Positions 2,131-52,734 of a stretch of 52,734 bases of DNA are shown one piece after another. Every line of letters starts with the position of its first letter. Position 1 is the stretch's first letter. A program made the position numbers and the translations under genes. The DNA is from a virus. Location: the UHGV virus genome UHGV-0124967; one strand, written 5' to 3'. The notes beneath the pieces are model-generated. The model had not been told where the DNA came from and did not search any database. It saw only the letters and a program-made list of their open reading frames with translations.

Positions 2131-5100
2131 ATGCTGTCGTTGATGTTCTAAATGATCCGGTGCCTCTTGCTACTATCATTGTTGGAGAATACAACGCGGT
2201 ACAATATGCGTATCCTTTAGATGATGATGTTTGAGGACAATATATTTTCCCGATAATATCTGATGCTTCTAAACCAGAAAAAGCGCATTGCACTGTTAAT
2301 GTGCATCCACCATAAGGCACGTAATATGAAATTGTTTTGTTTTTATCTCCGCAACTAAACGTTACGTTATAAATGGATCTATATTCACCAGACATTAATG
2401 AAATAGTCGCCATAAGCATAACTGATTTCGTCAATGCATTATCCGTGCTGTCTTTATATGTGATGGTTGCGCTATAACTTTCGTTATGCCCAAGCACTCG
2501 ATCTGGACCAACCCCCATGTTAGCAACGTCACCGACAAATGACTTTGCCTCTACTGTACCTTTAAACTTCCCGCTTGTGGCCTGAATCTCACCAGTGAAT
2601 TTACCAGATGTTGCGTACACCGTACCGCGTACAGTGACGTTGTTGAACTCCGCATTGCCGTTTTTATTTAGCATCCAGCCATCCGAACCAGCTTTATAGT
2701 TGGTTGACTGAATTTGCTGCGCAATCTTCGCGGTAGTGATTGATGCGTCTCTGATCCACGCATCACGGATGTAGCAAGCACCGTTAGTAACATAGAACGG
2801 GGTCTGATAGGAGCCACCTGCCGCAGTCATAAGCACGAAACTGTCAACGAGGAAAATACACCGCGATTGAACGTTAGTCCCGCTACCAGTAAGGCCGAGC
2901 GACATTCCTGTAGCGTATTTCATACCGTTTTTATCAGTGGCAATCTTAATTGAATATGACGCATCAACGTTACCTTTGAAGTCAGTCAGTGCTTTTGATG
3001 TCGTTTCTATCGCCGTTGTGTTTCCGTTAATAGTTACTTTCAACTGGTCGATTCTGGTTGACAATGCCTCGTCTGCCGTTGCCATAGCCTGTGACCATTC
3101 CGTGATGCTTGAGTTTACATCGTCGAAAGATGCCGAGATCTGGCCAAATTTTTCCGCGCTTGATGTTTCATGCGTAGAAAGTGCAGTTGACACTTCGGAT
3201 ACTTTCGAATTAATCGTACTGGTAAGCGATGAGTTAAGGCTGCTGATTGCGTCAGTGCGTGCATTCTTCTCATCTGCGATCGCTTTATCCATCCTAGTTA
3301 CGTTGCTTGTCACCTTGCTATCGAGCGTGGAAATTGACGCATTAACCCCGCTAATAGCTTCTGCGCGTGTGCTTGATTCGTCAGCGATAGCTTGATCAAG
3401 ACGGCTAACACTGGCATTTGTGTTATTTTCAAGCGTTGTTAAATCAGCTTTAACCTCTGTTATTGCGTCGCTTCTTGCCTGCGTTTCATCTGATATTGCC
3501 TTATCGAGGCGCTTAACACTGGCGTCAGTTTTCTTGTCAAGCGTTGAGATACTTGCGTTCACGTCGCTGATAGCCTGAGTACGCGCACTTGTTTCGTCTG
3601 CAATTGCCCGATCAAGACGGTTTACGCTGGCGTCAGTTTTCTTGTCAAGATTGCTTATTGAGGCATTTACACCGTTAATAGCTTCAGCGCGAGCGCTGGC
3701 CTCGTCAGCTACTGCGCGTTGCACATTAGAGATCTGACCTTTAAGGTTTGTGTCCATCACATTCATTTCTGCCGTGATGGTTTCCAGTGATTCCGCTGTC
3801 GCTTTTTTCTCTTCAGCGATAACGTTGTCAATGCGGTCAATTTCCGCTTTCGTCTCTGTCCTGCCTTTCTTGTACTGAGCGGTAAGAGTTACGCGAGTGT
3901 TAGTCTGTGCAAGCGAGTTATTAATAAGAGCAAGTGAGGCGTTTTGCAGACTTGCTTTTGCTTGCGCCAGTTCGCTGCCAACTTTTTCGCTAGACACCTC
4001 CAGCGAGTCGATTCTCGACTCATGCTGTCCAATATCATCGGAGTTTTCCTTAACTATTTTATAAAGATCTTCCGTTTCTTTTTTGAGCGTATCAGTATCA
4101 GCTTTTATTGATCCTGTTTCTATGGTTAGGTTGTCAGTAGCAGTTTTAAGGTCATTCGTAGCGCTTTCGATAAGATCAGTGCGGTCGCCTAGATCTTTAA
4201 TGTCACCAACCATTTCTTTAAATTGTTCGGAATTCATTACGTCTTTGGTGACGTAATCGGTAATTTCATCAAAGTTTTCTGTTGGCTTACCTGACGCTTC
4301 CACAAAGTCAGACACACCAAAAGCGTTACGCGCGCGCACATAAACGTAATATGTGTGACCTGTATTCATGCCGCCAAACGTCCACTGATGACCACGCCCG
4401 GTATATTGTGCTTTAGTGGTTATTGATGCCGGATCAGTGATCTGCGTTTCACCTGAGTAATAAAACTCGTAACTGGTATCAGTGGTGAGCATTGTTCTGC
4501 TGATCGGGTAAACTGTAGCCTGGAATACACCGGGAACCCAATTAACGCCAACTGGGGCCGCTGGTGCGCCAATAACCAGATCGACAATGCTTTCCGCACC
4601 CTTCATGCCCGTGTCATTTCTGCCACGAATGCCTAATGAGTAGTTGCCAGCATCAATGCCATAAAAATCATAACTGTAATTCGTGGTTTCGTAGCTTTTA
4701 ACTACAGCGCCTTCGGCGTTATACACGCGAATCTCAAAGGTCAGGCGACGCGTTGTCGTCTGTGTTTCCCATGTTGCGCGACATTGAACCGTTTCAGATC
4801 CAACGTTTAACACCTTCAGATTTTCAATGTTCGGCACGCGGAAGTGATTAAGCGTGTCGTTATTGATCTCGAAGATTGCGCCATTATCGACTTCGGCCTG
4901 CTTATGTGGATCATGCTGTGCGGCCTCGATGGTGTATACGCTGTTATTTTCTGTTTCTGCTACACTGGTGATTCGACATAAAACGGGTTTTGCTGCGTTG
5001 GTTGATACAGCAAAAACAGTGCCGTTACGAATCCACGCCGGGGCGGCTGCAAGGGTGATAATGTTCCCGTTAACTCCGATGATCTGGTGTTTTTTAAATT

Positions 5101-45715: not shown

Positions 45716-46834
45716 ATGTGTCAAAGAAAGATTAGTGATGAACAGCTAATCACTGAACATAACAACGGTCTAACGTATAAACAGATCGCCGAAAAATACG
45801 GAATGGCAAAACGCAACGTCGAACGCCTGGGCGCACGGTTGGCGAAACGCGGTTTAATATCCACGCGTCGCGCGCCGGGTTTTGGCGTCAATGGTGAGTC
45901 ATTGCTCGTCGATAAGGATGGCAATGTGATTATGCGCTGGATTAAAACAGCCCGTGATCGCGATGAAATGGAAAGGCTAATGCAATCTGCTTGTGACGCC
46001 TTCACGGAAGAAATACCCCGCGCGGAGTCCGTGCCAGTGCCGGAAATTGATTTCCAAAAAAGCCTGGCCCTTTATCCGGTATTTGATCTGCATATCGGGG
46101 CGCTTGCTCATAAAGCTGAATGCGGCGATAGCTACGACACCGGGATCGCTGAGCGCGTGCTAAATGATTTCTTCGACTACGCGGTAGGCGCTGCACCGAT
46201 GTCTGAAAAAGCTGTTTTGCTGTTAGGAGGGGATGTGCTCCACACTGACGGACTGTTACCAGTGACGCCATCAAGTAATCACGTTTTGGATTGTGATTCA
46301 CGCTACGCAAAACTTGTTTACGTGGCGATCCGGTCGGTCAGGCGTGCTGTAGGTAAGATGTTGTTGAATCATAAGGATGTAGAAATTCAGGTGTTATCAG
46401 GTAATCACGACCAGTCAGGAATGATCTGGCTACGTGCGGCGCTGAAGGCTTTTTACGAAGATGAACCGCGCGTTACTGTTGATGTGTCACCTGCCATCGT
46501 CCACCACACACAGTACGGCAAAACATTCCTTGCATATCATCACGGTCATACTATCAAAAAACCTGACAATTTGTTGTCTGCCTGCGTCTCTGACTGGCGA
46601 GAAGACTTTGGCAAGTCTGCGGCGGTTTACGCTCATTGCGGGCACTGGCATCATCAACGGCTAATTGAATCATCGTTAGGCGTTGTTGAGTATCACGGCA
46701 CGTTAGCGGGTAAAGACGCTTACTCAACTAATGGCGGCTGGCGGTCACGTCGTATGGCAGCGGTGATTATTTACAGCCAGGATTATGGTGAGATCGGGCG
46801 CTTTGTTTATTACCCTGAATATTCCATTTTGTAA
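45716..46834 (+). CDS. HTH plus calcineurin-like metallophosphoesterase domain protein
   Basis: 372 aa; N-terminal HTH; phosphoesterase motifs DLHIG, GGDVLHTDG, GNHD, HHGH, GHWHH. Confidence 0.6.
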   Translation: MCQRKISDEQLITEHNNGLTYKQIAEKYGMAKRNVERLGARLAKRGLISTRRAPGFGVNGESLLVDKDGNVIMRWIKTARDRDEMERLMQSACDAFTEEIPRAESVPVPEIDFQKSLALYPVFDLHIGALAHKAECGDSYDTGIAERVLNDFFDYAVGAAPMSEKAVLLLGGDVLHTDGLLPVTPSSNHVLDCDSRYAKLVYVAIRSVRRAVGKMLLNHKDVEIQVLSGNHDQSGMIWLRAALKAFYEDEPRVTVDVSPAIVHHTQYGKTFLAYHHGHTIKKPDNLLSACVSDWREDFGKSAAVYAHCGHWHHQRLIESSLGVVEYHGTLAGKDAYSTNGGWRSRRMAAVIIYSQDYGEIGRFVYYPEYSIL

Positions 46835-46852
46835 ACCGGAGGTAATGACATA

Positions 46853-48274
46853 ATGGTAACTGAGCAGATAAACTCACTACTGCAGGAACGTGAAGCGTCA
46901 GTTATCGGCGGGCTGCTATTAGGCGGCCTCACTCCTAACGCGCAAGATGTTCTCGCTACGCTAGATCCTGAAGTGTTCACTATTCCGCTGTATAAGCGGG
47001 CGTTTGAAATTATCCGGGCGCAAGCCAGAAACAGGAATCTTATCGACGCGTTATTGGTTGGTGATGAGATTGGTAATGAAAACTTTGTACCGCTAATGCA
47101 AACGGCGCGATCGTGCCCTTCTGCTGCCAACCTGAAGGGATATGCACAGCTACTACGTGAAGAGCACCAGCGGCGGCAGATGTTGGAACTCATCGACGAT
47201 ATGCGCTACAAACTGGAAACTGGGACACTTGAGGTCGTCAAAGAGACGATGAAAGATTTTGATTCCCGGTATTCAAAATTAAAGGTAACAAAAGATCAGA
47301 TTATCCCGGTGCTGTTGCGCGATGCTGTCCAGGAATACACGGAAGTGCTAAGTAAACGCATGGAGTGTGGCGTGAACTCTGACAACATCAAAACAGGGAT
47401 TGACCCACTCGACGAAATGTTAGGCGGCATTAACGCTACTGATCTGGTGCTTATCGCCGGACGCCCAGGGTCTGGTAAATCGGCGTTGGCGTTGGCAATT
47501 GCCCGCGCGGCTGCTGAACGCCAATACCCTGGCGGAGAAGGTCAGCGGGTCGGCGTTTTGTTGTTCACGCTTGAAATGTCGCTCGATCAGATGACTGAAC
47601 GCGCTATCGCTGGCGCAGGGAACTTGTCAACGGATTGCTTACGTAATCCGGTAAAACTGGATGACGAAGGATGGGCGCACGTTGCCCAGGGAATGAACGC
47701 ACTTGCTGATCTCGATGTGTGGATTGTTGATGCATCACAGTTAACTGTCGAGGAAATACGCGCCACAACTGAACGAATGAAGCAGGATTATCCCAACCTG
47801 GGTATGGTAATGATTGACTACATCGGGTTAATGAAGCTGGCTAAGGCAGAACGTCACGATCTCGCTGTAGGGCAATTGTCATGGTCGTTGAAGATGATGG
47901 CGAAAGAATTGCGCGTACCAGTGTTGGCACTGGCGCAATTATCCCGCCGCGTTGAGGAACGACCAAACAAGCGCCCGAACAATTCTGATCTGCGTGATTC
48001 CGGTAATCTTGAACAGGACGCAGACCGGATCATCATGGTCTACCGCGACGGGTACTATGATGAACAGTCTGTTGCCCGCGAATATATGGAGATCATTGTT
48101 TCGAAAAACCGTCACGGGAAAACGGGGACTGTTTACCAGCGGTTTGACGACAACGGCAACATCTTACCATGCGACCAGGCCCGCGCGGCGTCAGCTTGCA
48201 TCCAGTCAATGCAACAACGTCCGTCTGCAAGCCGATTCTCACCACGAAACAACCAGAATAACGCATCTTTTTAA
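46853..48274 (+). CDS. replicative DNA helicase (DnaB family)
   Basis: 473 aa; Walker A GRPGSGKS, LFTLEMS, VMIDYIGLM, LAQLSRRVEERPNKRPNNSDLRDSGNLEQDADRIIMVYRD. Confidence 0.9.
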   Translation: MVTEQINSLLQEREASVIGGLLLGGLTPNAQDVLATLDPEVFTIPLYKRAFEIIRAQARNRNLIDALLVGDEIGNENFVPLMQTARSCPSAANLKGYAQLLREEHQRRQMLELIDDMRYKLETGTLEVVKETMKDFDSRYSKLKVTKDQIIPVLLRDAVQEYTEVLSKRMECGVNSDNIKTGIDPLDEMLGGINATDLVLIAGRPGSGKSALALAIARAAAERQYPGGEGQRVGVLLFTLEMSLDQMTERAIAGAGNLSTDCLRNPVKLDDEGWAHVAQGMNALADLDVWIVDASQLTVEEIRATTERMKQDYPNLGMVMIDYIGLMKLAKAERHDLAVGQLSWSLKMMAKELRVPVLALAQLSRRVEERPNKRPNNSDLRDSGNLEQDADRIIMVYRDGYYDEQSVAREYMEIIVSKNRHGKTGTVYQRFDDNGNILPCDQARAASACIQSMQQRPSASRFSPRNNQNNASF

Positions 48275-49910: not shown

Positions 49911-50573
49911 ATGAGTGAATCAAGAGTAATTGGCATAATTCGTCATCGCACTAACCCTGATGTTTACCCATCGTTTGAGGTAACAACATGCCGCACGGAA
50001 TACAATTTTGGATCATGCTATTTAGTTGGCGTCCGCGCTGATACTCGCGGCACTTATTCAGTTATGGCGGCAAGCTGGAAATTTGATAAATACGCTAATT
50101 TATCTAACAAGGATGATGACGGCATGAATAAAGAAAGTGAAATTATTGATGGATTAATCGAAGATGAACGCCGTGACTGCGAAACACAACAAGAAAAAAC
50201 GGAATGGGTCGTAGGTGATAAGCCTCCTGTTAATGTGTGGCTTGATTGCGTAGGTTTGACAAGTGGAACTATTCTTGATGTCGTCAGGTTTAAATATGTT
50301 GGTGATAAATGGGCTATATGTGAAAGCAAGGAAGATTTTTGTGGCGAGAGGCCGCTATCATGGACAACATGCTCTTTCAAGCTGCATATAGATCCGAAAG
50401 AAAAGGCACTTGCTGAAATCGCGCTTGCACTTGCTGTCAATGTTATGGGTGAAGACGCGGCAAAAGAGATTGACTTTAACCACGACAATGATTTTTCGTG
50501 CGATTATCGCAATATGGCGCAAGCTATTATTGATGGATGTATCGGACACGTTGAATACACGGGGGATAAATAA
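49911..50573 (+). CDS. hypothetical protein, 220 aa
   Basis: ATG 49911 with GAGGAT RBS (track ORF from 49896); Cys-containing, acidic. Confidence 0.5.
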   Translation: MSESRVIGIIRHRTNPDVYPSFEVTTCRTEYNFGSCYLVGVRADTRGTYSVMAASWKFDKYANLSNKDDDGMNKESEIIDGLIEDERRDCETQQEKTEWVVGDKPPVNVWLDCVGLTSGTILDVVRFKYVGDKWAICESKEDFCGERPLSWTTCSFKLHIDPKEKALAEIALALAVNVMGEDAAKEIDFNHDNDFSCDYRNMAQAIIDGCIGHVEYTGDK

Positions 50574-50803
50574 TGGATAAAACCGGGACAATCCTTCTTA
50601 GTCGCCCTGCCATCTGCCGGATGCTTGGGGGAATTAGCAGGGGAACGTTTTACTTATGGCGTAAAAAATGGGAACGGAACGGAACTCCGTTCCCCGACCC
50701 GGTTGACGTACTTGGGACCGGGCGTGGCGTTATGTACCGCTATCAGGACGTAATGCAGTTCTTTGATCGGATTGGTTTAACGTCAGCCAAAGATAACACA
50801 TAA
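50573..50803 (+). CDS. AlpA-family HTH regulator / putative excisionase
   Basis: 76 aa; LGGISRGTFYLWRKKWERNGTPFPDPVDVLGTGRGVMYRYQDVMQFF pattern; convergent with integrase 3' end. Confidence 0.65.
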   Translation: MDKTGTILLSRPAICRMLGGISRGTFYLWRKKWERNGTPFPDPVDVLGTGRGVMYRYQDVMQFFDRIGLTSAKDNT

Positions 50804-51958
50804 TCAGCAAACTTATTTAGTGCCTCCTTTTGTTCATCAAGATAATCATATTTGTCGTACACCGCCAGTATTCCCCTTAATGAATGGCCTAAGATCTTTT
50901 CTGCAATATGTACCGGAACACCTATAGCTGAAAGGTGTGTCCGGCACGTCCTGCGGAGGTCGTGACAGGACCATGATTTACCGCCCATCCTTTTACGCAC
51001 GAATATTGCAGCTACTTTTATCACTGATACGTTTACTGGCCTGTTGCCGCCGTTAATCACTGGCGGGAATACATAATCATACTCATGGGAGGTTAAAACC
51101 TCCCTGAGCATTTTTATCGACAAGTCAGATAATCCCCGCCTGATTTCACTTCTTGTCTTCGCCACCGCCGCCGGAACGGTCCATACACCGTTGTCCAGAT
51201 CTAGGTGTTCCCTTCTCATTTTCTGCAATTCACCAACCCTGCACCCGGTTAGCAATAATAGCTTTAAGGCTATTTTGTTCTGCGGATAGATCTGCGAACT
51301 GTCTACCGTGCGCCAGAAGTGGCCTATCTCCTCACATGAAAGGTAACGCTCCCCCCACCGCATAATGCTCGCCAACGTCAGCTACACGGATATTGTTTAT
51401 CGCCGTGTTAGTCATTAGCCCACGCCTGATTGCGCTGTTAACGATGATTTTCATTCGCTTCAATATCAAACCAGCCGTAACCGCGTGACCCGCCGCAGTG
51501 ATCTCGCCAAATATATCCATCCACTGTTTTGTCGTTACGTCGTCAGCTATGTAGTCGCCGTACTTGTTGACTACGTGGCGCATCAATGCGCTTTTGACTT
51601 CTTTATATGCCACCAGCTTAATGACGTTCGGCAGGGATAGATAGTCTTCCACTACGTCGGATATAGATCGCTTGCCCTGCTCAAAGGCTATGGCCTGCTT
51701 TACGCACAGTGCCGGATTCTTCCCTTTCGTAAGCAACTCCCTGTATTCAGACACCGCATAGCGGGCGTCTTTCAGACTCATTTTCCCGTATTCACCGATC
51801 TTCATTCGCACTGGCTTACCGTTGAATCTGTAACGGTACTGGAAAGTAATTTTCCCTTTTGGGTTTATCCTGGCTGACAGGCCATCACGATCAGCTATCT
51901 CGCTTGGACCGTCGTATGGCTTGTTGGCGATGGCCCTTAACCTGGTATCCGTAAGCAT
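50743..51958 (-). pseudogene. tyrosine integrase disrupted by a frameshift
   Basis: Two overlapping frames (51332..51958 N-terminal, 50743..51375 C-terminal with HDLRR, LGHS, AVYDKYDY motifs). They meet at a C6 run (51351-51356); deleting one base would give continuous ...GEHYAVGERYLSCEEIGHFW.... Could be a real pseudogene or a sequencing error. Confidence 0.7.
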
Positions 51959-51972
51959 GTTGCCCCCCCATT

Positions 51973-52235
51973 TTTGGTCACGTTTTGGTACACAGTTTTT
52001 GTTGTACGGATATTAACAGTATTGTACGGAATTAGAAACGTGATGCCGGGTTTTGGTTACAACTTTATGATTTTTAAGTGATTTTATTGACGTGATTGAA
52101 CGGAGTTAAACGCCTTTAAACATAGTGCGCTGGTCCTGTCTGGAATGATTAGTGTAACGAATAATCATTTATAAAACATAATGTTATGTTGTTTTTGATT
52201 TTAGTTTTTGATATTTGGTCACTATTTGGTACACA
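51973..52235. repeat. two copies of a ~22-bp direct repeat flanking an AT-rich region; candidate integrase arm sites / att region
   Basis: TTTGGTCACGTTTTGGTACACA (51975-51996) and TTTGGTCACTATTTGGTACACA (52214-52235); each is itself a tandem of TTTGGT(C/A)AC. Confidence 0.35.
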
Positions 52236-52263
52236 AAAAGAAACGAGGCGTTAGCCTCGTTTC
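52235..52263 (-). terminator. rho-independent terminator for minus-strand gene 52307..52591
   Basis: GAAACGAGGC-GTTA-GCCTCGTTTC followed on minus strand by T5. Confidence 0.5.
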
Positions 52264-52306
52264 TCGGCGATGCTTTCAACATCACCATGCTATCACTGCC
52301 GCATCA

Positions 52307-52591
52307 TTAAGCCCATGCGCGGACGCCTGGATCTGGAACGATGAAAGGCTCAAGCTGAGAAATATCAACATCGTCACCAGTTATACGCACGTTGACGTAA
52401 TAACCTTTTTTTCCAATAAGTACAGGTGTCTCGCTTTCTGGATCGTCGAATACAAGGACAAAACCGATATCATCAATAAACACGGTTGACCAATTGGCAT
52501 CCAGCCAGCCGCTATTAATCACAATGTCGTTGTATTGCTGTTTGTCAGTAAATTGCAAGCTAACGTCTTTCATGTTAACCACCTTAAACAA
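52307..52591 (-). CDS. hypothetical protein, 94 aa (outside or at edge of prophage)
   Basis: Track ORF with AAGGTGG RBS; followed by terminator. Confidence 0.45.
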   Translation of the reverse strand: MFKVVNMKDVSLQFTDKQQYNDIVINSGWLDANWSTVFIDDIGFVLVFDDPESETPVLIGKKGYYVNVRITGDDVDISQLEPFIVPDPGVRAWA

Positions 52592-52593
52592 TT

Positions 52594-52734
52594 TCGCTTA
52601 ATTGCGCATCAGTTAATGCCTTATGCCATACTCGAAAATTTCTAACATGACCAAATAAATGACGTTGTCCTGTCGTTGTCTGACCACCGATACGAATAGT
52701 TGCGGAGCTTTGAATATAAGTCCAGGTTGTTTTT
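52594..52734 (-). CDS. C-terminal fragment of a protein with a LamG/jelly-roll-like terminus; gene starts beyond window end
   Basis: Open minus frame from window end to TAA at 52594; ends ...GQRHLFGHVRNFRVWHKALTDAQLSEIV. Confidence 0.4.

Follow-up and report, generated by a model that had tools for sequence, protein, structure and literature searches.

The interval 51970–52236 of the window, as we call the whole 52,734-nt stretch of DNA that was analysed, is best explained as the attP site of a heterobivalent tyrosine integrase of the P4/lambda kind that recombines with the host gene dgcM. We put the probability of this reading, in which the integrase (Int) is taken to bind the arms, at about 0.9. 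The N-terminal arm domain of Int would bind four TTTGGT(A)CAC units that are arranged as two tandem pairs flanking the core, and its core-binding and catalytic domains would act at the 12-bp core GTCCTGTCTGGA. Bridging of arm and core sites, probably helped by host bending proteins, would give rise to the intasome, and attP would then recombine with the identical 12 bp in codons 14–18 of dgcM to form the two prophage junctions. Excision should restore dgcM exactly, with a 76-aa helix-turn-helix (HTH) protein as the likely excisionase. The binding of Int to the repeats is one that we infer from the anatomy and the conservation of the region.

The window can be assigned to the mEpimmI (mEp021-like) group of temperate coliphages as a circular genome with an integrase of type Ia; it forms a closed circle in which base 52734 runs on into base 1 in prophage order. 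The closest phage records are mEp021, mEp515 and mEp554, with 83–84% DNA identity across int, and the Int protein is 89% identical to that of mEp021, a type Ib phage whose match to attB is 9 bp. DNA identity to the prophages FAH, M1/5, MS 21-1, KKa019, PAR and Ecol_244 is 92–99.8% across int and 91–99.6% across int together with the att region; all six of these lie beside dgcM and are given as integrase type Ia in Table 2 of PMC11893012. The same paper (PMC11893012, Front Microbiol 2025) defined the mEpimmI group and its integrase types Ia, Ib, II, III and IV, and gave as insertion sites the 5′ region of ydaM (= dgcM) for types Ia and Ib, the 3′ end of abgT for type II and the start of mppA for type III, the mEp021 site at ydaM being PCR-verified. 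Its integration motif sequences are shown in figures only, and its text, which speaks of short integration sequence motifs and integrase types, makes no mention of attP, arm-type sites or an excisionase. A full-text literature search for TTTGGTACAC, one of the arm units described below, returned unrelated primer sequences only. The insertion locus ydaM/dgcM is already published for this phage group and the architecture is an ordinary one. The gain is mostly one of annotation, as the insertion locus, the only feature published earlier, is now joined by a complete description of attP with its arms, core and terminator and of the likely int promoter and excisionase, and the new detail, namely the arm-site set and the apparently constant arms with swapped cores, is modest. 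In human faeces, the mEpimmI coliphages are reported to equal lambdoid phages in frequency.

Arm repeats, core and prophage junctions

A 22-bp block, TTTGGTCACnnTTTGGTACACA, is present in two copies, at 51973–51994 (reading TTTGGTCACGTTTTGGTACACA) and at 52214–52235 (reading TTTGGTCACTATTTGGTACACA), with a start-to-start spacing of 241 bp, and does not occur elsewhere in the 52.7-kb window. Even when up to three mismatches are allowed, the pattern matches only these two blocks, compared with a mean of 0.02 matches in shuffled sequence, where two matches were reached in 0 of 100 shuffles; chance as the source of the repeat was ruled out by these statistics. Each block is composed of two 9–10-nt units, TTTGGTCAC and TTTGGTACAC, that follow one another with a period of 11 bp, and the relaxed unit TTGGT[N]CAC is found four times in the 52.7 kb, all four within the att region and all four on the + strand. 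The Int-proximal (P) block at 51973–51994 holds the tandem + strand units TTTGGTCAC (51973–51981) and TTTGGTACACA (51984–51994) and lies 14 nt from the int start codon, and the Int-distal (P′) block at 52214–52235 holds TTTGGTCAC (52214–52222) and TTTGGTACACA (52225–52235), also on the + strand. No other repeat of the att region occurs on both arms. A possible fifth arm-type unit, TTTGGTTAC (52052–52060, + strand), has one mismatch to TTTGGTCAC and is weaker; its status is uncertain because it is found in type Ia sequences only and is not conserved in types Ib, II and III. The GC content of 51959–52238 is 33.9%, as against 45.8% for the whole window.

A sequence-only reading of this DNA had described direct repeats and an AT-rich stretch beside the integrase, with smaller repeated units in that stretch and no tRNA-like sequence. 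The repeats and the AT-rich stretch are indeed present, with the main repeat far above chance expectation, the smaller units were recovered as two copies of TTGTACGGA and two of GTTTTTGAT(T/A)TT, and a search of the whole window with ARAGORN gave neither tRNA nor tmRNA genes. That reading did not include the weaker unit at 52052, the terminator at 52238–52265 or the frameshift in int, which are added here.

Prophage junctions were sought by megablast of the window against 5,426 complete E. coli genomes. In ten of these (LP-26-E1-261 and nine others) the window is split at 52133–52144, the two places lying ∼54 kb apart. The int-side prophage homology runs up to 52144 and the far-side homology begins at 52133, and the core is therefore the 12-bp GTCCTGTCTGGA (52133–52144), a sequence that occurs just once in the window. 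The int-side junction of LP-26-E1-261 has GCGCTGGTCCTGTCTGGA up to the crossover and TCGTTTCGCC after it, and then continues into dgcM. The other junction reads ATGATTACG...CTCACCAGTCCTGTCTGGA and is followed by ATGATTAGTG, with zntB, ynaN and the dgcM promoter region located before it. The prophage is flanked by zntB/ynaN and the 5′ end of dgcM on one side and by the remainder of dgcM on the other, and the P and P′ blocks are found at its opposite ends, ∼54 kb apart. The unoccupied site of strain 120899, which reads CACCAGTCCTGTCTGGATTGTTTCG within dgcM, contains the same 12 bp, and the alignment shows GTCCTGTCTGGA to be common to attP, both prophage junctions and this unoccupied site. The core, as the crossover region, is identical to attB within dgcM and corresponds to codons 14–18 of DgcM (MITHNFNTLDLLTSPVW, then IVS). 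The two arm blocks flank it, with P 138 nt to one side and P′ 69 nt beyond the other side. Core-type inverted repeats flanking the overlap region were looked for by eye and none was convincing.

These junctions bear directly on the earlier proposal that the repeats are integrase arm sites of an att region, which is supported by a prophage crossover that falls between the two repeats and by the adjoining integrase with its arm domain. A prophage boundary mapping elsewhere would have spoken against that proposal, and in the ten E. coli genomes the boundary maps exactly between the two copies; the comparison with an uninfected chromosome that had been suggested is provided by strain 120899, and the other prophage end, which had still to be located, lies ∼54 kb away beside zntB/ynaN and the dgcM 5′ end. 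The expectation that integration is not into a tRNA gene likewise holds, with attB being codons 14–18 of the protein-coding dgcM. An element that targets a tRNA was considered and rejected, as the window holds no tRNA or tmRNA and attB is located in a protein-coding gene.

Integrase gene, leader and accessory sites

The tyrosine integrase gene next to the repeats, of the P4/CP4-57 type (50743–51958, − strand), is split into two ORFs in the window by one extra C in a C6 run at 51351–51356. The same run has five bases in six relatives, including the intact orthologue of LP-26-E1-261, and the extra base is the only structural difference between the window int and that of LP-26-E1-261. Because of the five-base run in six relatives, the frameshift probably arose either in assembly or by mutation in the very recent past; were it real and no homopolymer artefact, this one genome would be unable to integrate without help. 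The intact orthologue of LP-26-E1-261, a protein of 404 aa, matches the Pfam families Arm-DNA-bind_3 at aa 2–84 (E 6e-20) and Phage_integrase at aa 207–367 (E 1e-20), and Int also matches the arm domain of a CP4-like integrase (PDB 3jtz, E 1.8e-7). The catalytic motifs R (TGCRVGE), HxxR (HDLRR), H (LGHS) and Y (VYDKYDY) are all seen in the Int sequence.

As int reads away from the core, its promoter must be located in the P arm. A poly-G tract (51963–51969, − strand; C7 on the + strand) separates the int start codon from the first arm unit and is, to judge from the sequence, the likely Shine–Dalgarno region of int. Among relatives the tract is G5, G6, G7 or G9 in length, and PAR and L048 have an interrupted form of it. 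A −10-like hexamer, TAATAT on the int sense strand (+ strand positions 52010–52015), is found between the two TTGTACGGA copies and directly upstream of the P2 unit on that strand, and a counterpart is present at the same place in four integrase types, as TAATAT (Ia, Ib), TACTAT (II) and TATATT (III). A second candidate is the sigma-70-like TTAACT-17-TAAAAT toward int (52081–52109, − strand), with a −10-like hexamer whose end, 122 nt from the int ATG, is the same in types Ia, Ib and III. It was the sole hit in a promoter scan of 51800–52400, which gave none toward dgcM, and one int-strand hit is no more than is obtained with shuffles. The P pair lies between the int start codon and the conserved −10-like element, and Int bound there would cover the leader and the ribosome-binding region and would thereby be predicted to repress its own synthesis. 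Negative autoregulation through an int promoter that overlaps the att arms has been demonstrated with intS of KplE1 and is also reported for P4 (PMC2951348). On the far side, the P′ arm is abutted by the strong rho-independent terminator of the − strand tail/spike operon (52238–52265, − strand), which consists of a 12-pair stem and a T tract, is identical in all four integrase types and ends an operon that includes a 94-aa ORF and the head-spike/tail-fibre gene.

The candidate excisionase, or recombination directionality factor, is the 76-aa HTH protein encoded at 50573–50803 on the + strand, in a gene that converges on int with a 61-nt overlap with the int 3′ end. The protein matches Pfam HTH_23 (E 2.5e-6), and only generic HTH families reach the threshold in Pfam and NCBIfam; below it are found Xis_Gifsy_1 (E 0.016) and, for the type II orthologue, Phage_AlpA (E 0.2). 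Similarity to P4 Vis is weak (33% identity over 43 aa, E 0.004). In a fold search that used a single-sequence AF2 prediction, with four of the five models poor, the best PDB match was the GIsul2 excisionase 8c3t (prob 0.99, E 0.089). These matches point to a likely excisionase, as a tentative assignment. The TTGTACGGA copies at 52002–52010 and 52022–52030 (+ strand), which flank the −10-like hexamer, are candidate int-promoter or excisionase-binding sites. Their counterparts are specific to each integrase type, with GAACGGAT twice in Ib, ACACGATAGAA twice in II and GTTTAC three times in III, and the HTH proteins are 93% identical between Ia and Ib and 45% identical between Ia and II. The type-specific repeats and the divergence of the HTH protein would fit excisionase sites at the TTGTACGGA repeats, without proving them.

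The T-rich repeats GTTTTTGAT(T/A)TT (52191–52215, with starts at 52191 and 52204, + strand) are situated between the core and the P′ block, as is an IHF-like site with one mismatch, TATCAAAAACTAA, on the − strand at 52201–52213. No exact IHF consensus is present in the att region, and sites with one mismatch number two versus 0.5 expected and are not conserved across the integrase types. The types all keep the T-richness but do not conserve the second half of the IHF consensus, and IHF sites are weakly supported here.

Integrase types, related systems and other explanations

We rebuilt attP for seven genomes, namely the window and PAR (Ia), mEp021 and STEC308 (Ib), mEp010 and strain 190 (II) and LSU61 (III). 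In the seven-sequence alignment the block beside the int ATG, the block beside the terminator and the terminator itself are strongly conserved, as is the short −10-like block by the P arm, whereas the rest of the ∼240 bp between the arms diverges. Beside the int ATG, the P block is retained by types Ia, Ib and II and replaced by a variant in type III, and the P′ block stands directly before the terminator in all four integrase types. Types I and II have TTTGGTCACnnTTTGGTACACA at both positions, the mEp021 P′ copy carrying one substitution (TTTGGTCTC), and the type III arm variants are TTTGGCGCACAATATGGTACACA and TATGGTACACATAATGGTGCACA. The cores are GTCCTGTCTGGA in Ia, CTGTCTGGAT(T)G in Ib, TTATCTTTT in II and GAAAGAGA in III, and change with the host target (dgcM, abgT, mppA). 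Comparison of Int of type Ia with those of types II and III gives the highest identity for the N-terminal arm domain (61%), 47–54% for the catalytic part and the lowest value (34–40%) for the middle, core-binding part. To be set against the reading of the repeats as Int arm sites, there is no clear co-variation of the arm motif with the N-terminal domain, as at the same 61% identity the type II arms are identical and the type III arms variant. An exact-motif scan of IMG/VR gave 36 stretches with the motif, on contigs mostly of ∼54 kb. The motif adjoins the int ATG or the terminator in every one of the 36, and the 11 stretches with both copies have them 241 bp apart (type I) or 231 bp apart (type II). 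A family with the same arm sites and at least four cores and core-binding domains represents a natural retargeting series, which is relevant to the engineering of integrase specificity.

The closest parallel in layout is the attP of satellite phage P4 (NC_001609.1, annotated with ‘attP arm sequence repeat’ and ‘attP core’), in which the int ATG, a tandem arm pair, the core and a second tandem arm pair follow in the same order. In P4 the first arm pair is located at 3942–3965, 16 nt from the int ATG, the core at 4078–4097 and the second pair at 4151–4174, all in a single orientation. In both P4 and the window int reads away, a pair lies ∼15 nt from the ATG, the core ∼110–140 nt further on and the second pair 55–70 nt beyond, for a total att span of ∼230–265 bp. 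The two Int proteins are homologous and both contain Arm-DNA-bind_3, although their identity is only 23% (E 3e-15). The arm motifs differ, being TTTGGT(A)CAC with an 11-bp period in the window and (T/A)NATGCCCCC (ATGCCCCC) with a 12-bp period in P4. Core and target differ as well, in that the window phage uses the protein-coding dgcM and P4 integrates into a tRNA-Leu gene. Lambda and the KplE1 IntS-TorI system (PMC2951348) likewise have arm-type sites on both sides of a short core within an AT-rich attP of ∼250 bp, and as in KplE1 and P4 the int promoter of the window must overlap the int-side arm. With respect to lambda, the Int family, the arm motif and the number and spacing of the sites are different, and IHF and Xis sites are not confidently identifiable in the window.

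The integrase of the Stx2a phage WGPS6, a distant relative of the window Int (34% identical), is preceded by a tandem TGGTACACA pair (TTTGGTACACATCTGGTACACAA), and the TGGTACAC arm motif is therefore common within this branch of the family. Among species-representative genomes the exact 22-nt block was found in two only, both marine alphaproteobacterial MAGs, with about one chance hit expected. Each MAG has it ∼22 nt ahead of a DUF6538-type integrase, together with a third unit of 11 nt. This also counts against the attP reading, since no similarity in sequence could be detected between these DUF6538-type integrases and the phage Int. Both the location of the block and its additional unit argue against chance. 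On a speculative and rather unlikely view, the presence of the TGGTACAC motif upstream of marine alphaproteobacterial integrases of this type hints at an old, portable arm code.

The P block stands in the int 5′ leader directly downstream of the conserved −10-like hexamer, and the HTH gene adjoins int, so that the repeats might also be read as operators at which the small HTH protein, or another regulator, governs int expression or excision. We consider operators in place of arm sites to be quite improbable. The P′ block lies ∼280 bp from int, beyond the core and against the terminator, with no gene there to regulate, and types I and II share the same blocks though their HTH proteins are only 45% identical. 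Moreover, an arm-binding domain needs arm sites, the two blocks are the sole repeat shared by both arms, and the same tandem-pair layout is annotated as attP arm repeats in P4. The +1 frameshift that splits int in the window is what a relic would display, that is, a dead integrase with repeats left over in a phage that has given up lysogeny by integration. Such a state is very improbable, given that the frameshift amounts to a single extra homopolymer base that is absent from six close relatives, and that the arms and core are undamaged and match exactly those of integrated prophages whose int is intact.

An AT-rich stretch (34% GC) with several short direct repeats also recalls a replication origin with iterons, as phage origins often look so and the P4 crr/ori repeats are located near P4 attP, or else some cis element unrelated to integration. 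We regard this as scarcely credible, since the prophage crossover takes place inside the region and leaves the repeat copies at opposite prophage ends, the replication genes (a 372-aa protein and a DnaB-type helicase, 45716–48274) are 4–6 kb away, and the block travels with int across phage lineages, including the Stx2a phage. As an origin or iteron array, the region was ruled out by the junction mapping.

Consequence of integration for dgcM

Integration through attP splits dgcM such that its promoter and first 17 codons are found at the far prophage end, fused to ND-stop (a stop after 19 codons). The remaining part of dgcM, beside int, has a phage in-frame stop four codons upstream and no phage-supplied start; the remnant is annotated in RefSeq as 393 aa. 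From these fusions it would follow that dgcM is very probably inactivated during prophage carriage and restored upon excision. DgcM and MlrA together switch on csgD and curli, and in O157:H7 curli are known to be lost through prophage insertion in mlrA (PMC3874044, PMC5635171). As dgcM activates the formation of curli and biofilm, carriage of these prophages, which is seen in ∼0.35% of complete E. coli genomes, may alter the biofilm phenotype.

A parallel is provided by the Stx phages inserted in mlrA (yehV) of E. coli O157:H7, which have a related P4-type integrase and affect the same DgcM-MlrA-CsgD curli/biofilm pathway (PMC3874044, PMC5635171), although the target gene and the core of the window phage differ from theirs. 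Integration and excision might accordingly be viewed as a reversible switch on the DgcM-MlrA-CsgD pathway, with relatives retargeting through a swapped core-binding part of Int and a fixed arm module, a speculative and on balance unlikely extension of the attP reading. It is suggested by the removal of the dgcM promoter and 17 codons and their restoration by precise excision, by other prophages with P4-type integrases that hit mlrA in the same pathway and, as far as retargeting is concerned, by sister types that keep the arms and have moved to abgT and mppA nearby.

Host gene and attachment site after integration

Comparison of the 12-bp attP core (52133-52144) with the E. coli dgcM loci L001 and L002, and with that of strain 120899 (L015), reveals that integration breaks this gene after codon 17, and that its 5′ piece runs on into the prophage as a 19-codon ORF ending SPVWND*. 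No in-frame start is supplied from the phage side to the 3′ piece, which is nonetheless annotated in RefSeq as a 393-aa DgcM. The host base directly 3′ of the core is polymorphic, TGG ATC versus TGG ATT, as observed on comparing STEC308 (L009/L010) and strain 120899 (L015) with L001, and the change is synonymous. On a host with ATT, the type Ib match to attB reaches CTGTCTGGATTG. mEp021, itself of type Ib, has just 9 bp in common with the ATC form of attB. The window represents a circularly closed genome, base 52734 running on into base 1 in an order that matches the prophage of E. coli LP-26, and its linear cut falls inside a head-spike/tail-fibre gene.

Integrase reading frame and flanking sequence

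Within int (50743-51958, minus strand), one additional C in the C6 run at 51351-51356 leads to a frameshift of the integrase. Six relatives, among them a 99.6%-identical prophage, exhibit C5 at this position together with an intact 404-aa int ORF. The frameshift in the window reflects either an error of assembly in a homopolymer or an inactivating mutation of very recent origin. A poly-G tract (51963-51969; C7 on the plus strand) that is likely the Shine-Dalgarno region of int lies between the int start codon and the first arm unit. Its length differs between close relatives (G5, G6, G6, G6, G7 and G9), and the tract is broken up in PAR and L048; the tract could be prone to slippage and thereby tune Int translation, or the variability could be noise from sequencing. 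In the type II phage mEp010 (L005, 150-1385), the annotated int ORF begins 12 codons 5′ of the conserved MLTDTKL start, which has the effect of placing the P arm block within the annotated CDS; the annotated int start in type II phages is probably wrong.

At its other end, int is convergent with the candidate excisionase ORF (50573-50803, plus strand), and the 61-nt overlap implies that each gene is transcribed antisense to the 3′ end of its neighbour. In the type III prophage of LSU61 (L014, about 4375-4606), an orthologue of the candidate excisionase ORF is present, unannotated.

Arm motif in other integrases

The exact 22-nt arm block, plus a third 11-nt unit, is found in two marine alphaproteobacterial MAGs (L052, 4100-4121; L053, 6215-6236), ∼22 nt 5′ of integrases of 481 and 487 aa with a DUF6538 N-terminus, for which BLASTP against the phage Int gave no similarity. 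This occurrence may stem from an arm code common to both, from convergence or from chance. L053 also carries a tRNA 3′ fragment nearby, and a second integrase ORF, DUF4102-like by eye, with GTTTGGTACCC 5′ of the ORF. In the Stx2a phage WGPS6 (L055, 1-240; NC_049945.1), TTTGGTACGC and tandem TTTGGTACACATCTGGTACACAA precede an integrase that is 34% identical to the window Int, and Gifsy-1 (L057) contains two copies of TGTGTCCATCA (reverse complement TGGACACA). Within this branch of integrases, TGG(T)ACAC seems to be a widespread arm motif.
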